Shown: positions 14,600-25,405 of the stretch, piece after piece
How positions within the stretch are numbered: the first letter of the stretch is position 1
Layout of the letters: each line of letters opens with the position of its first letter
Made by a program: the position numbers and the translations under genes
Notes under the pieces: generated by a model
The model's database searches: none
What the model saw: the letters and a program-made list of their open reading frames with translations, nothing else
What the model was told of the DNA's origin: nothing
Source of the DNA: an uncultured Alcaligenaceae bacterium
Lineage (GTDB): Bacteria > Pseudomonadota > Gammaproteobacteria > Burkholderiales > Burkholderiaceae_B
DNA length: 64,000 nucleotides
NCBI GenBank assembly: GCA_937908115.1
Contig: CALEQZ010000041.1
Location: 73,544-137,543, forward strand
Direction of reading: 5' to 3'

Positions 14600-15817
14600 A
14601 TGGTCGAACTCGCTGACATCCAAGCCGCCCGGCAGGCGCTGGCCGGACAGATCCAGAACACGCCTTTCGCGCTGTCGCGCACCTTGAGCGACATCCTGGA
14701 CGCCGAGGTCTGGCTGAAGTTCGAAAACCTGCAATTCACCGCCTCGTTCAAGGAGCGCGGCGCGTACAACCGCATGCGTCTGCTCGATCCGCAAGAGCGG
14801 CGCCAAGGCGTCATCGCCGTGTCCGCCGGCAATCATGCCCAGGGCGTGGCCTATCACGCGCAGCGCATGGGGGTGCCGGCAGTCATCGTCATGCCGCGCT
14901 TTACGCCCACGGTGAAAATCGCCAACACCCGGCGCTTCGGCGCCGAGGTCGTCCTGGCCGGCGACACTTTCGACGATGCCAAGGCGCGCGGCTTCGAACT
15001 GGCGGCCGAGCGCGGCCTGGTCATGATCCATCCGTACGACGACGCGGCGGTGATCGCCGGGCAGGGCACGGTGGCGCTGGAAATGCTCGAGGCCCAGCCC
15101 GGGCTGGACACCTTGGTCGTGCCCATCGGCGGGGGCGGCCTGATATCGGGCATGGCCACGGCCGCGCGCGCCTTGCGCCCGGACATACGCATCGTCGGCG
15201 TGCAGGCCGAGCGTTTCCCGGCCATGTATGCGGCCTGGCGCGGGCAAGAAATGGCCTGCGGCGCGCATACCATCGCCGAAGGCATCGCCGTCAAATCGCC
15301 CGGCGGGCTGACCTTGCCCATCGTCTCGCGGCTGGTCGACCGCATCGAGCTGGTCGGCGAAAGCGACATCGAGCATGCCATCGTCATGCTGCTCGAAATC
15401 GAGAAAACCGTCGTCGAAGGCGCCGGGGCGGCTGCGCTCGCGGCCTTGCTGCGGGCGCGCGCAGCCGGTGACGACAGCTACCGGGGCCGGCGCATCGGCC
15501 TGGTGCTATCGGGGGGGAACATCGATCCGCTGATGCTGGGCGAACTCATCGAGCGCGGCATGGTGCGCGCCGGCCGCCTGGCGCGCATCCGCGTGGCGCT
15601 GGATGACCTGCCCGGCGCGCTGGCGCGGGCCACGCATTTGATTGCCGAGGCCCATGCCAACATTACCGAGGTCCATCATCAACGGGCCTTCACCCTGTTG
15701 CCGGCCCAGAACGTCGAGGTCGAATTCGTCTTGCAAACTCGCGGGCCCGAGCACATCGAGCAGGTGATCGCCACGCTCGACGCGGCCGGGTTCAAGGCCG
15801 AAAACCACGATCATTGA
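14600..15817 (+). CDS. threonine ammonia-lyase (PLP-dependent, single C-terminal ACT-like domain)
   Basis: It has the PLP-lysine motif FENLQFTASFKERGA and a glycine loop, PIGGGGLISG. The 405-aa length fits the short form with a regulatory domain. Confidence 0.88.
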   Translation: MVELADIQAARQALAGQIQNTPFALSRTLSDILDAEVWLKFENLQFTASFKERGAYNRMRLLDPQERRQGVIAVSAGNHAQGVAYHAQRMGVPAVIVMPRFTPTVKIANTRRFGAEVVLAGDTFDDAKARGFELAAERGLVMIHPYDDAAVIAGQGTVALEMLEAQPGLDTLVVPIGGGGLISGMATAARALRPDIRIVGVQAERFPAMYAAWRGQEMACGAHTIAEGIAVKSPGGLTLPIVSRLVDRIELVGESDIEHAIVMLLEIEKTVVEGAGAAALAALLRARAAGDDSYRGRRIGLVLSGGNIDPLMLGELIERGMVRAGRLARIRVALDDLPGALARATHLIAEAHANITEVHHQRAFTLLPAQNVEVEFVLQTRGPEHIEQVIATLDAAGFKAENHDH

Positions 15818-16425
15818 TCGACGGCCGAATAGGCCTGCAGCAGCTTGGCCAGCCGGAACAGCCGCTCGCGGTGCAGCGTCTCGGCCAGCGGCTCTGCCGG
15901 GCGGCCCAGCGTCAGCGCGTCGGCCGGGGTGTCGGCCAGGGCTTGCAGTAGCAGCCCGCGGCGGCTGGCCCACCAGCCGGCGAGCAGCCGGTCGGGGTCG
16001 ATGACGGCCAAGCCGAACCGGCGCAGCTCCGTCCGGTTGAAATCCCGCACGTTCCACGTCACCACGCATGCCGGCGTGCCCGGGTGCCGCGCCAGCGCGG
16101 CCCTGCCTGCGGCCACGACGTGCCAGTCCTTGGGGTCGCTGTAGCGCAGCCCTTCCTTCCACGGTTCGACCTCGCCGCAGTCGGCGTCGGGAAACGCCGC
16201 CTGCATCGCCTGCCACTGCGCCTGGAGCGCCTCGGGGTCGGCTTGCCAGACGCGGGCGGCATTGCGCTGCCATTCCTGGCCGATGCGCGCGCTCCAGGCC
16301 GGGCGAAAGCAGCCTGCCGCGGCCAGGCGCAGCAGCAGCGGCCGCACGATGCCCGACATCAGCACGCAGGCATCTAGTACCGCGAGGCCGCCACCGGGCG
16401 GCGCGCCGTCGTCCCAGGCGGGCAC
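15811..16425 (-). CDS. PIN-domain protein (VapC-like putative ribonuclease toxin)
   Basis: This is the C-terminal two thirds of ORF 15811..16692. The proposed GTG start at 16425 lies 8 nt after the upstream gene's stop. PIN-like acidic positions are present (VLDACVL, SDPKDWHVVAA, VVTWNVRDF). The start codon is uncertain. Confidence 0.7.
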   Translation of the reverse strand: MPAWDDGAPPGGGLAVLDACVLMSGIVRPLLLRLAAAGCFRPAWSARIGQEWQRNAARVWQADPEALQAQWQAMQAAFPDADCGEVEPWKEGLRYSDPKDWHVVAAGRAALARHPGTPACVVTWNVRDFNRTELRRFGLAVIDPDRLLAGWWASRRGLLLQALADTPADALTLGRPAEPLAETLHRERLFRLAKLLQAYSAVDQ

Positions 16426-16433
16426 GGCGCGCG

Positions 16434-16772
16434 TCAGTTCAGTTCGCGGGCCCCGGGCGCGGCGTCTACGCCCAAGGCGTCCAGCGCCGCCTGGTAGGCG
16501 CCCGGGTTGGCGCACAGGAATACGGCGATATCGCCCGGGGAGACGTTTTCCAGCACCTCTTCGACCTGCTCGCCGGCCTGCGCCGCGCTGGTCACCGCCG
16601 CGGCATGCACGTCGGCGCCGCTTTCGAAGTCTTCGGGCGGAACGATCCCGGTGACCAGCTCCAGGTCGGGCTCGCCGACCACGACATAGCATTGGATTTC
16701 CATGTCGTCGACCCGGGTCTGCAGGCTGATGCCGTCCGGGGCGCTGCCCACTTGCCTGCTGATGATGCTCAT
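16434..16772 (-). CDS. small acidic hypothetical protein (candidate cognate antitoxin of the PIN gene)
   Basis: Internal ATG (MSIISRQ...) of ORF 16434..17207 with AAGGA upstream. It is 112 aa, strongly acidic, and has high third-position GC. No recognisable HTH, RHH or AbrB motif. Confidence 0.6.
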   Translation of the reverse strand: MSIISRQVGSAPDGISLQTRVDDMEIQCYVVVGEPDLELVTGIVPPEDFESGADVHAAAVTSAAQAGEQVEEVLENVSPGDIAVFLCANPGAYQAALDALGVDAAPGARELN

Positions 16773-16870
16773 GATGGCGTCCTTGCGTGGTAGAAGCGGC
16801 CGGCTTTGCGTGGTGTGGCGGCCGATGCGCCGCGTGCAGCAGGCGGCGTGCCTGGCGCGCCGACGGTGGA

Positions 16871-16904
16871 AAAAATCTTGCCGCCCCGTGTCATGCAGGG
16901 CAGG
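16871..16904 (-). terminator. possible terminator after tRNA-Leu(UAA)
   Basis: On the minus strand, CCTGCCCTG-CATGACA-CGGGGCGG forms a stem with one bulge and one G.U pair, followed by CAAGA and TTTTTT. Confidence 0.4.
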
Positions 16905-16906
16905 CG

Positions 16907-17251
16907 TGGTGCCCGAGACCGGAATCGAACCGGTACGGCCCTTGCGGGCCGAGGGATTTTCGTACCACTTCGGCTTTCGCCGCCGCCTGGGATGGGGCCA
17001 GGGCCCGCACCCAGGCGTTCGTGGTCTGGAGCACGCCTTCATCCTAGCCTTGCGGCCGTAGATGCCCGCCGTCTGCTCTCTACACCTTCCGGACCGCCGG
17101 GGCCGGCGGCCCGGCTTGGCTCGGCGTTGGCTCGCTGGCACGGGGGCCGCAGGGCTTTCGCCGAATTTGACGGGCGACACCCCGGGGATTTCTCCGCGGG
17201 GGCTCAAATTACCTTCAAGTCCCTTGTGTCTACCAATTTCACCACTCGGGC
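16907..17251 (-). tRNA. tRNA-Leu(UAA) interrupted by a group I intron (exon 1 17251..17217, exon 2 16960..16907)
   Basis: The exons join to an 89-nt type II cloverleaf: acceptor GCCCGAG/CTCGGGC, D arm GTG-AAATTGGTAGA-CAC, anticodon stem AGGGA/TCCCT with loop CU-UAA-AA, variable arm GGCCC-GCAA-GGGCC, T arm ACCGG-TTCGATT-CCGGT, then A73 and CCA. Confidence 0.87.
16961..17216 (-). ncRNA. group I intron (IC3-like, ORF-less, 256 nt) in the anticodon loop of tRNA-Leu(UAA)
   Basis: The intron follows exon U34 and ends in G. It starts GAAGGUAAUUUGAGCC and has a GAAA-capped hairpin. Core blocks GUCAAAUUCGGCGAAAG (17171..17155), CAACGCCGAGCCAAGC (17129..17114) and GGAAGGUGUAGAGAGCAGACGG (17090..17069) match, from memory, the Azoarcus tRNA-Ile and Anabaena tRNA-Leu intron cores. 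Confidence 0.85.
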
Positions 17252-17393
17252 ATGCGCGGGTGGCGCAAGGCCAGGGATTATGCCACGCCGGCCTGGGGCC
17301 TGGGCCAGGGGCAGGGTACGCCTGCGGCGAAGTTACGGGTTACAGTGTGCTGCGCGAACCACCCGCGGGGTCAATCGGCAGGAGACGATCGGA

Positions 17394-18869
17394 ATGAAGA
17401 CCTACAACCATTTCATCAATAACGAATACGTGGAGCCTTTGGACGGCGAATGGATGGACACGGTCAATCCCTACACCGGCAAGGCCTGGGCCAAGGTGCC
17501 CAAGGGCAGCGCCAGGGACGTGGACCGGGCCGTGCAGGCCGCCCGCCAGGCTATGACCAGCGGTCCGTACGCGCGGATGACGCCGTCCGAGCGGGGCAAG
17601 ATGATGATGCGCCTGGCCGACCTGGTCCAGGCCAATGCCGAGCGCTTGGCCGAGATCGAGGTGCGCGACAACGGCAAGCTGCTGTCAGAGATGCTCGGCC
17701 AGCTCAAGTATCACCCCGAATGGTGGCGCTATTTCGGCGGCCTGGCCGACAAGCTCGAGGGCGGGGTCGTGCCCATCGACAAGCCCGACCATTTCGCGTT
17801 CACCACGCAGGAGCCCGTCGGCGTGGTCGGCGCGCTGACGGCCTGGAACTCGCCGCTGCTTTTCATTGCCTGGAAATGCGCGCCGGCCATCGCCGCCGGC
17901 TGCTCGGTCGTGGTCAAGCCGTCGGAGTTCACGTCCGCCTCGACCCTGGAATTCGCCGCCCTGACCAAGGAAGCCGGCTTTCCCGACGGGGTGTTCAACG
18001 TGGTCACGGGCCTGGGCCCGACCGTCGGCGCAGCCCTGGTGGACCATCCGGACGTGGCCAAGATCACCTTCACGGGCTCGGACAGGACGGGGGCGGCCAT
18101 TTATGCCCAGGCTGCCCGAACCATGAAACGGGTCACGCTGGAGCTGGGCGGCAAATCGCCCAACATCGTCTTTGCCGACGCCGACCTGGACAAGGCTGCC
18201 GCCGGCGTCATATCGGGGATATTCGCTGCCACCGGCCAGACCTGCATCGCCGGCTCGCGCCTGCTGGTGCAAAACTCGATCAAGGATGCCTTTACCGAGC
18301 GCCTGGTGCAGCTGGGCCGCTCGGCCAAGAAGGGCGACCCGATGCTGCCGGATACCAACATCGGTCCGGTCACCACGCCCGCGCAATACCAGAAGATCCT
18401 CGATTACATCGATATCGCCAAGCGCGAAGGGGCGCGCTGCGTGCTGGGTGGCCAGCCCGCCTCCGACATGCCGGGCGGCCAGTTCGTCGAGCCGACCATC
18501 TTCGTCGACGTCACGCCCGGCATGCGTATCGCCCGCGAGGAAGTGTTCGGCCCTGTGCTGTCCATCCTGGGATTCGAGGACGAGGAAGAGGCCATCGCGC
18601 TGGCCAACGACACCATCTACGGCCTGGCCGCCGGCGTGTGGACCGAGAATATCGGCCGCGCCATCCGCATGTCCAAGGCGCTGAAGGCGGGCACCGTATG
18701 GGTCAACACCTACCGGGCGATCAGCTACATGATGCCTTTCGGCGGCATGAAGCATTCCGGCATCGGCCGGGAAAGCGGATTGGAGGCCGTGCGCCACTAC
18801 CTCGAGACCAAGAGCACCTGGATCTCGTACGCCGAAGGCGTGCCGGCCAATCCCTTCATCATGCGCTGA
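17394..18869 (+). CDS. NAD(P)-dependent aldehyde dehydrogenase
   Basis: In-frame ATG within ORF 16806..18869, 491 aa. ALDH motifs are FTGSDRTGAAI, the Glu site LELGGKSPNIV, and the catalytic Cys in FAATGQTCIAGSR. The upstream ORF part overlies the tRNA and intron and is spurious. Confidence 0.92.
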   Translation: MKTYNHFINNEYVEPLDGEWMDTVNPYTGKAWAKVPKGSARDVDRAVQAARQAMTSGPYARMTPSERGKMMMRLADLVQANAERLAEIEVRDNGKLLSEMLGQLKYHPEWWRYFGGLADKLEGGVVPIDKPDHFAFTTQEPVGVVGALTAWNSPLLFIAWKCAPAIAAGCSVVVKPSEFTSASTLEFAALTKEAGFPDGVFNVVTGLGPTVGAALVDHPDVAKITFTGSDRTGAAIYAQAARTMKRVTLELGGKSPNIVFADADLDKAAAGVISGIFAATGQTCIAGSRLLVQNSIKDAFTERLVQLGRSAKKGDPMLPDTNIGPVTTPAQYQKILDYIDIAKREGARCVLGGQPASDMPGGQFVEPTIFVDVTPGMRIAREEVFGPVLSILGFEDEEEAIALANDTIYGLAAGVWTENIGRAIRMSKALKAGTVWVNTYRAISYMMPFGGMKHSGIGRESGLEAVRHYLETKSTWISYAEGVPANPFIMR

Positions 18870-22721: not shown

Positions 22722-22811
22722 TGGCGGTGGGTCAGGGATTCGAACCCTGGAAGGGGTTGCCCCCTTGCTGGTTTTCAAGACCAGTGCCTTAAACCGCTCG
22801 GCCAACCCACC
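22722..22811 (-). tRNA. tRNA-Ser(UGA)
   Basis: The reverse complement is GGTGGGTTGGCCGAGCGGTTTAAGGCACTGGTCTTGAAAACCAGCAAGGGGGCAACCCCTTCCAGGGTTCGAATCCCTGACCCACCGCCA. It has anticodon loop CU-UGA-AA, a long variable arm, and T loop TTCGAAT. Confidence 0.93.
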
Positions 22812-25320: not shown

Positions 25321-25405
25321 GCCGTCGTGGTGGAATTGGTAGACACGCTATCTTGAGGGGGTAGTGGCGAAAGCTGTGCGAGTTCGAGTCTCGCCGACGG
25401 CACCA
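25321..25405 (+). tRNA. tRNA-Leu(GAG)
   Basis: GCCGTCGTGGTGGAATTGGTAGACACGCTATCTTGAGGGGGTAGTGGCGAAAGCTGTGCGAGTTCGAGTCTCGCCGACGGCACCA. It has anticodon stem CTATC/GGTAG, loop TT-GAG-GG, and a type II variable arm. Confidence 0.93.

Follow-up and report, generated by a model that had tools for sequence, protein, structure and literature searches.

The window analysed here, a stretch of 64,000 nucleotides (nt) of contig CALEQZ010000041.1 from an uncultured Alcaligenaceae bacterium, carries on its minus strand a tRNA-Leu(UAA) gene that is interrupted in the anticodon loop by a group I intron. The insert, 17216..16961, is confirmed by sequence comparison as a member of subgroup IC3. It is very probable that the gene is functional, being split between positions 34 and 35 (CUU/AAAA, the slash marking the insertion point) by a 256-nt intron without an open reading frame (ORF) and spliced in the way proposed below. 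Both halves of the tRNA are present exactly as quoted in a first-pass annotation of the window, which had claimed a tRNA-Leu(UAA) gene with its parts 256 nt from each other. The 5' exon (17251..17217, minus strand) reads GCCCGAGTGGTGAAATTGGTAGACACAAGGGACTT, and its last nucleotide ahead of the 5' splice site, position 17217, is U34. The 3' exon (16960..16907, minus strand) reads AAAATCCCTCGGCCCGCAAGGGCCGTACCGGTTCGATTCCGGTCTCGGGCACCA; it opens with AAAAUCCC and closes with A73 and an encoded CCA (16909..16907), giving the end ACCA. Joined, the two exons form an 89-nt molecule which ARAGORN, used for the tRNA check of the sequence spliced in silico, calls tRNA-Leu(UAA). The predicted cloverleaf has an acceptor stem of 7 base pairs (bp), a long variable arm and the 7-nt anticodon loop CUUAAAA. 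The spliced 89-mer also aligns end to end with genes annotated as tRNA-Leu in Escherichia coli genomes, with 77.5% identity and an E value of 5e-9.

In order to identify the insert, a covariance model (R1) was built for the intron core, from P3 through the 3' strand of P7, with 139 positions and 26 transferred base pairs. Its source is the hand-curated Stockholm alignment of 26 bacterial introns, with consensus structure, in the supplement of Williams 2020 (bioRxiv 10.1101/2020.01.27.920355). The cores of 12 curated bacterial tRNA intron seeds were realigned, and the transferred pairs were checked row by row. These seeds include tRNA-Ile (Azoarcus-type), Arg, fMet, Thr, Met, Lys and Ser introns and two tRNA-Leu seeds, Sel1 (taken to be cyanobacterial) and Ncf2, both outside the subfamily of the window intron. 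The window intron and its own subfamily, including the seed Bba346.Leu.3Cg, were left out of the model. Over the 64 kb and on both strands R1 has a single match, at 17026..17176 on the minus strand, with 84.9 bits and an E value of 1.3e-19, and it runs end to end on the model. The score lies inside the range of 70.5-109 bits found for full-length introns of the related loci tested. A match of this strength is well beyond chance and establishes the insert as a group I intron, as the first-pass annotation had read it, of the bacterial tRNA type (IC3).

Standard annotation passes over the gene, as had been anticipated. Default ARAGORN reports only two tRNA genes in the window, tRNA-Ser(UGA) (22722-22811, minus strand) and tRNA-Leu(GAG) (25321-25405, plus strand), both uninterrupted and ordinary, and the Rfam tRNA model matches only the tRNA-Ser, missing the split tRNA-Leu. 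The intron option of ARAGORN returns a 'tRNA-Ser(gga)' with a 254-nt intron; this call was rejected as wrong, a shifted anticodon stem having been chosen, and the same mis-splicing occurs on five identical metagenome copies (L001-L005). Splice sites were instead enumerated, with U or C at the 5' site and G at omega, and the spliced product was validated with ARAGORN. No homing endonuclease ORF is present within the 256-nt intron, as the earlier reading had it. The ORFs that overlap the intron are read-through artefacts: 16434..17207 (minus strand) extends the downstream gene of 112 amino acids (aa), and 16806..18869 (plus strand) extends an aldehyde dehydrogenase gene.

Structure and proposed splicing of the intron

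The anatomy of the intron was obtained by threading the window on the curated consensus structure of bacterial introns from the same supplement, and the coordinates are given in Table 1. The intron follows a U and ends in G, starting with GAAGGUAAUUUGAG and finishing with GUGGUACG (omega-G at 16961); the longer termini on the minus strand are GAAGGTAATTTGAG at the beginning and GTGGTACG at the end. The U.G splice-site pair of P1 and the omega-G had both been predicted, and both are found: the junction CUU/GAA faces the guide UUUGAG, with the wobble pair of U34 and G at 17217/17205. All core helices form in the window intron, including the P3/P7 pseudoknot, and P7 has both the bulged A and the G-binding pair. 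The features of subgroup IC3 are present as well, since there is no P5abc, GNRA loops occur on P2 and in the P9 domain, and receptor-like motifs can be recognised. One of these, the UCUACG/UAGGA motif of P8, is a variant of the family consensus CCUACG/UAUGG. The two GAAA-capped hairpins of the first-pass annotation are assigned here as P2 and P9b; by analogy, their loops would dock into P8 and P5.

Table 1. Coordinates of the split tRNA-Leu(UAA) gene, its intron and the adjoining hairpin in the window
Feature	Position	Strand	Description
tRNA 5' exon	17217..17251	-	35 nt; acceptor 5' strand, D arm, anticodon-stem 5' strand, C32 U33 U34; ends ..GGGACUU
Group I (IC3) intron	16961..17216	-	256 nt, 70% G+C, no ORF of its own
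P1	17203..17219	-	exon CUU (17219..17217) and intron GAA (17216..17214) with internal guide UUUGAG (17208..17203)
P2 hairpin	17180..17201	-	9 pairs, one C.C mismatch; GAAA tetraloop 17192..17189
Catalytic core P3-P4-P5-P6-P6a-P7-P8	17026..17176	-	full-length R1 match at exactly these coordinates
P3	17174..17169 with 17070..17065	-	CCCGUC with GGCGGG
P4	17164..17159 with 17126..17121	-	UCGGCG with CGCCGA
P5	within 17155..17130	-	simple hairpin with internal loop
P6	17120..17118 with 17086..17084	-	GCC with GGU
P6a hairpin	17114..17089	-	11 pairs
P7	17080..17074 with 17033..17028	-	G(A)GAGCA with UGCUCC; bulged A at 17079
P8 hairpin	17064..17040	-	GCAA loop; UCUACG/UAGGA motif resembling a tetraloop receptor
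P9 domain	16965..17024	-	P9 CCAC/GUGG: 17024..17021 with 16968..16965
P9a hairpin	17017..16984	-	extended, long
P9b	16982..16971	-	CGGC-GAAA-GCCG; GAAA loop 16978..16975
tRNA 3' exon	16907..16960	-	54 nt; A35 A36, anticodon-stem 3' strand, long variable arm, T arm, acceptor 3' strand
Terminator-like hairpin	16871..16903	-	8 pairs then T run; begins 4 nt past the encoded CCA; from a consensus scan only

The structure is supported by covariation in an alignment (A1) of 112 distinct sequences, window included, for which 65 pairs were counted. Of the cells in the 65-pair structure, 96.6% hold standard pairs, and shifting the 3' partners by 1-3 columns lowers this share to 31-42%. Drawing the structure on the window row gives the unshifted register an advantage, but the effect is immaterial in view of how wide the gap is and how many types of pair contribute. 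Changes on both sides are seen at 29 pairs (439 cells), and none of 500 column shuffles reaches any of five measures. Covariation is heavy in P2, where eight of the nine pairs have changed on both sides across the 112 sequences, and in P6a, P9a and P9b; a few compensatory events are found in P3, P4, P5, P8 and P9. P7 does not vary within the subfamily but carries a double compensation with respect to the Azoarcus intron (ACUA/UAGU to AGCA/UGCU). In 69 of the 112 sequences the splice-site pair is U.G, in the other 43 it is C-G, and it is never unpaired; the two exon pairs of P1 and the omega-G column are invariant. The window holds every family-invariant column, including the omega-G, the P7 strands and the J6/7 and J8/7 segments, and it has a compensatory change of its own in P8, where C-G has become U-A at 17062/17042.

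Regarding function, the biochemistry of the Azoarcus and Anabaena introns leads us to infer autonomous self-splicing with the chemistry known from these introns. Transcription of the gene would yield a single precursor, terminating in the hairpin and T run past the CCA. The intron would then fold from P1 to P9, and pairing of the guide UUUGAG with the exon end CUU would place the U.G wobble at the 5' site. A free guanosine, bound in P7, would attack the 5' splice site, after which the omega-G (16961) would occupy the same P7 pocket. Finally, the 3' OH of U34 would attack the 3' splice site while the first AAA of the 3' exon is held on the guide, whose UUU (17208..17206) can probably pair with it after the first step to form P10. 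Ligation of the exons would give the 89-nt tRNA and release the intron. Docking of both GAAA loops would stabilise the fold, and the anticodon stem of the exons would need to form.

Alternatively, the element could be a true group I intron that needs help, its efficient splicing in the cell depending on a protein cofactor or an RNA chaperone, in which case the name 'self-splicing' would not hold in vivo. Several group I introns use chaperones or dedicated cofactors, and the high G+C content of this RNA (70%) and the preference of its minimum free energy (MFE) fold for non-native pairings in the core would fit such a dependence. In contrast, the Azoarcus intron, which self-splices efficiently without protein, has a similar compact IC3 architecture with two GAAA loops and motifs resembling receptors. 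Furthermore, no cofactor gene is conserved beside the intron across hosts, the flanks differing among the hosts compared. A need for a protein is therefore unlikely in our view, and we retain autonomous self-splicing as the more probable mode.

Points against a functional gene

Some observations weigh against the reading of a functional and spliced gene. The Rfam 15 model Intron_gpI (RF00028) gives no match, either in the whole window at its gathering score or in 16800..17350 at E<=10. This is literally the outcome that the first-pass annotation had held to speak against an intron, but the controls make it invalid as a test. Among eight homologous intron loci, none reaches the gathering score (50 bits); two give sub-threshold matches (L039, 37.8 bits; L117, 26.3 bits), and the other six (L007, L010, L048, L069, L098 and L011) have no match at E<=1. 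Because the model also fails on all eight homologous introns, its negative does not refute the assignment: it is a failure of sensitivity of the model and not evidence against membership. According to Williams, none of the 12 Rfam seed sequences used was bacterial, and the yield rose by 20% with a model that had bacterial tRNA introns as its seed (bioRxiv 10.1101/2020.01.27.920355).

The MFE fold of the single sequence (modest z-score, -2.3) recovers P2, P6a, P9, P9a and P9b only and misses the pseudoknotted core; single-sequence folding is uninformative about the core. The window intron also has its oddities, namely the C.C mismatch in P2, P6a and P9a arms longer than those of most relatives, and a non-canonical receptor-like motif in P8. 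It sits on a long branch, its closest relative among the matches listed being approximately 75% identical over the whole fragment. Finally, no promoter for the tRNA-Leu gene passed a consensus scan. The sequence TGGCATAAT, approximately 26 nt upstream of the 5' end of the tRNA, is a mere possibility as a promoter element. On the other side of the gene, the hairpin and T run at 16871..16903 would be the end of the tRNA transcription unit.

A rival reading is a dead tRNA gene, disrupted by what is left of a decaying group I intron that no longer splices. The family does contain decayed copies: L062:2860-3370, in a metagenome-assembled genome (MAG) of Dyella, and L095:2630-3155, in Caballeronia mineralivorans. 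In these, the 5' exon is truncated or the anticodon stem mismatched and the 3' strand of P7 is mutated, with further damage in the P9b loop (L062) or in P3 (L095), and ARAGORN finds no tRNA in either of them, even after attempted splicing. The window intron is itself divergent and carries the mismatch in P2. However, none of the decay marks of these two copies is found in the window copy. All family-invariant core positions, the cloverleaf, the encoded CCA and the terminator-like hairpin are intact, the differences in the helices are mostly compensatory, and the R1 score falls within that of the intact relatives tested. In addition, the locus is conserved in related genera, and an identical copy is present in five independent metagenome assemblies. 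We consider a dead gene very unlikely and keep to the reading of a functional gene interrupted by an intron that is probably spliced.

Relationship to other tRNA introns

The first-pass annotation held a tRNA-Leu(UAA) intron in an Alcaligenaceae-like genome to be taxonomically unusual. This claim fails, because at least 115 intact homologues are found in tRNA-Leu genes of Beta- and Gammaproteobacteria, including at least 19 in Alcaligenaceae, four of which are at the same locus. One scan of a species-representative genome collection with the subfamily-specific J6/7-P7 string AAGGTGYAGAGAGCAGAYGG gave at least 120 matches. Apart from the intact split genes, at least 115 in number, the 120 matches listed comprise two that are cut by the end of the stored locus and are real introns (L056 and L110), the two decayed copies and one without an intron (L035), a pattern match that lacks an R1 match and was not counted. 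A simple pattern check found no recognisable exon ends in L131, L132, L133 and L135, and these were not counted as intact.

The hosts fall into two types. At least 71 introns are in tRNA-Leu(UAA) genes (36 in Gammaproteobacteria and 35 in Betaproteobacteria), with the boundaries CUU/..G/AAAA in all those listed, and at least 44 are in tRNA-Leu(CAA) genes (23 in Gammaproteobacteria, 15 in Betaproteobacteria and six with the class not named), with CUC/..G/AAAA in all those listed. In the carriers of the second type (L007, L018, L070, L086 and 40 other loci listed) a C precedes the splice site and P1 has a C-G pair; Williams flagged this C-1 class, 'Leu.3Cg', for the C before the splice site (bioRxiv 10.1101/2020.01.27.920355). 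Among the matches listed the introns are 213-278 nt long, with a median of 227 nt for the UAA type. The window intron, at 256 nt, lies in the upper part of this range, owing to the length of its P6a and P9a arms.

The carriers in Alcaligenaceae belong to Achromobacter, Bordetella, Castellaniella, Kerstersia and Pusillimonas. Among the matches listed, the UAA type is found in Achromobacter pulmonis, A. dolens, A. ruhlandii, A. animicus, A. spanius, A. kerstersii and three further Achromobacter strains, in Bordetella genomosp. 13 and a Bordetella MAG, and in Castellaniella sp. S9. The CAA type is found in Bordetella tumbae, Achromobacter sp. F4_2707, Kerstersia gyiorum, Castellaniella ginsengisoli, Pusillimonas caeni, a Pusillimonas MAG and one further Alcaligenaceae strain. 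Two side observations concern the wider family. The MAG CAVPTW01 has two different intron-bearing tRNA-Leu genes of the UAA type, on two contigs (L020 and L033; introns of 233 and 230 nt), which could be either a true duplication or the product of a mixed bin. A similar insertion of approximately 17 nt in the P8 loop (CAAAGCGGTAACACGCG-like; A1 columns 194-215) is present in some introns of both types: L007, L018, L028, L057, L086, L100 and L113 of the CAA type, mostly betaproteobacterial, and L077, L078 and L101 of the UAA type, which are gammaproteobacterial. This similarity hints at recombination between introns of the two types or at an ancestral extension.

The window intron is thus a regular member of an abundant class that is already known, and nothing new in kind. 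Williams catalogued the proteobacterial tRNA-Leu classes 'Leu.3Ug' and 'Leu.3Cg', with the seed Bba346.Leu.3Cg (bioRxiv 10.1101/2020.01.27.920355); excision from CUU/...g/AAAA leaves a valid tRNA-Leu in the window, as in class Leu.3Ug. Two further papers, PMC3984707 and PMC11835236, contain nothing specific to proteobacterial tRNA-Leu introns. The core of the window intron is 86% identical to that of Bba346.Leu.3Cg, 80% to the Azoarcus-type tRNA-Ile seed, 70-79% to the Arg, Lys, Thr, Met, fMet and Ser seeds and 65% to the tRNA-Leu seed Sel1, which is the lowest of the 13 seeds compared and the sole one taken as cyanobacterial. On this sequence comparison, the window intron is placed in a proteobacterial, Azoarcus-like lineage and is not a stray cyanobacterial element. 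Of the core likenesses to the Azoarcus and Anabaena introns that the first-pass annotation had recognised, the first is borne out (80%) and the second is weak (65% to Sel1).

Bba346 shares with the window the insertion point in the loop, the omega-G, near-identical J8/7, P9 and P9b segments, and a subfamily-specific P7, GAGAGCA/UGCUCC instead of GAGACUA/UAGUCC. It differs in being from a tRNA-Leu(CAA) gene, with C-1 and a C-G pair in P1, whereas the window has a tRNA-Leu(UAA), the canonical U.G and longer P6a and P9a arms. The Azoarcus tRNA-Ile(CAU) intron (seed Aol6.Ile2.5Ug), for which crystal structures exist, is likewise an IC3 intron without P5abc, with a GAAA loop on P2, the P3/P7 pseudoknot, a GAAA-capped hairpin in the P9 domain and nearly identical P4, J6/7 and P7 5' segments. 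However, it interrupts another tRNA, after loop position 5 rather than 3. The CU/AG of its P7 corresponds, with compensation, to GC/GC in the window, which also has an extra P9a/P9b domain and the P8 motif UCUACG/UAGGA in place of CCUAAG/UAUGG.

The cyanobacterial and plastid tRNA-Leu(UAA) intron (Anabaena/Nostoc; seed Sel1.Leu.3Ug) agrees with the window in tRNA, site, U-1, omega-G, subgroup and lack of an ORF, but its core is the least similar (65%), it is A+U-rich and it has other peripheral elements. The insertion site of the window intron is the classical cyanobacterial one, CUU/..g/AAAA (bioRxiv 10.1101/2020.01.27.920355), as had been stated from the window alone. A recent horizontal import of the cyanobacterial or plastid intron into a betaproteobacterium would account for this coincidence. 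Yet the shared site does not imply closest kinship, and among the 13 seeds compared the one taken as cyanobacterial is not the closest, the core standing at 65% to it versus 80% to Azoarcus tRNA-Ile and 86% to the proteobacterial Leu(CAA) seed. The intron is also syntenic in Achromobacter and Bordetella, with a divergence like that of the flanking genes; it is spread over Beta- and Gammaproteobacteria, in no fewer than 71 genes for tRNA-Leu(UAA) and no fewer than 44 for tRNA-Leu(CAA), and its G+C content (70%) matches that of the host (67%). Such an import is extremely unlikely, and descent within the proteobacterial lineage is the reading we follow.

A further tRNA-Leu(UAA) intron, of 231 nt, was reportedly described in the subsurface Pseudomonas isolate SMCC D0715 by Vepritskiy et al. 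in 2002 in J Bacteriol (184:1481), and its P8 is said to contain the motif CCUACG...UAUGG, which matches the consensus of the present family. The host is a gammaproteobacterium, a different class from that of the window. Judging from this P8 motif only, the intron probably belongs to the same subfamily; members of 216-233 nt from Pseudomonas and Stutzerimonas are among the matches listed (L029, L044, L046, L063, L069 and L092).

Inheritance in Alcaligenaceae and exchange elsewhere

The gene order in the window is pnp, a PALP-family enzyme, a PIN-like gene, a small ORF, tRNA-Leu and aldehyde dehydrogenase. Exactly the same order, with an identical intron, is found in five independent metagenome assemblies, and a sixth contig ends before the tRNA. 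On the pnp side the order recurs, diverged, in Achromobacter kerstersii, Achromobacter sp. ESBL13, A. pulmonis and Bordetella genomosp. 13. At this shared locus the flanking genes are approximately 66-87% identical, the pnp region 83-87% and the tRNA with its intron 78-81%. Because the locus is syntenic and the intron has diverged like the flanking genes, the intron appears to have been inherited vertically at a fixed chromosomal locus within Alcaligenaceae. The synteny and the identity of the pnp region also assign the window to this family, near Bordetella and Achromobacter. The bearing that the first-pass annotation saw on the ancient-versus-mobile debate for the tRNA-Leu(UAA) intron is weakened by this stability and by the Azoarcus-like proteobacterial lineage. 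Directly downstream of the tRNA, the PIN-like gene and the 112-aa ORF (15811-16772, minus strand) are kept with 66-70% identity in the Achromobacter and Bordetella loci. The PIN-like gene has a faint match to PF13470, seen on the identical metagenome copies, and the two genes may be a toxin-antitoxin pair.

Elsewhere in the family there are signs of horizontal exchange. In a neighbour-joining tree of 219 intron columns, beta- and gammaproteobacterial hosts are interleaved; the sequence is too short to resolve vertical from horizontal descent. Lysobacter concretionis (L043, Gammaproteobacteria) and Ottowia beijingensis (L071, Betaproteobacteria) have identical exons and introns that are 97% identical. 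They also share a block of more than 5 kb with 93% identity (L043:2935-8000 versus L071:342-5411; also in L009 and L013), which starts approximately 200 nt upstream of the tRNA and runs into the conjugation genes trbI, trbG (CagX-like) and a trbL-like gene. Upstream of the block is the usual neighbourhood of uvrC, pgsA, tRNA-Gly and tRNA-Cys. The intron-bearing tRNA gene of this pair seems to sit at the end, or within the end, of an element similar to an integrative conjugative element. Identical exons and 97% identical introns, with unrelated flanks, are found in Stutzerimonas stutzeri and a Luteibacter. In the pairs L063/L084 and L053/L109, whose hosts are from different orders, the exons are 100% and the introns 97-98% identical, and the flanks are unrelated on at least one side. 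Such cross-order pairs suggest that the tRNA gene and its intron were exchanged horizontally, or converted, as one unit.

Five IMG/VR contigs (L127, L128, L130, L134 and L136) carry an intron-bearing tRNA-Leu(UAA) gene approximately 0.2-1.4 kb from an end of the stored stretch, which is not necessarily the end of the contig. Such a position would be expected if the gene flanks integrated prophages. Together, the pairs and these contigs suggest that intron-bearing tRNA-Leu genes are carried whole by integrative elements. Introns of this ORF-less family may spread between classes by hitch-hiking, the whole tRNA-Leu gene being exchanged together with adjacent integrative or conjugative elements and prophages, which perhaps target it. 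The Lysobacter/Ottowia block, the cross-order pairs with unrelated flanks and the five IMG/VR contigs are compatible with this scenario, which we nevertheless put forward as a conjecture with rather low odds. The evidence of exchange concerns other copies, and the copy in the window looks vertically inherited.

For annotation, the gene is a useful reminder. It escapes ORF callers, default ARAGORN, the Rfam tRNA model and Rfam Intron_gpI, and the genome could consequently be recorded as having no UUA decoder; annotation that relies on Rfam will overlook introns of this subfamily systematically. Inheritance of the lineage is vertical and stable within Alcaligenaceae, with signs of horizontal exchange in other hosts. 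Hitch-hiking, if true, would be a route of group I intron mobility without a homing endonuclease. In Alcaligenaceae, the sole UUA decoder may possibly depend on splicing by a ribozyme, in which case its supply would be conditional.

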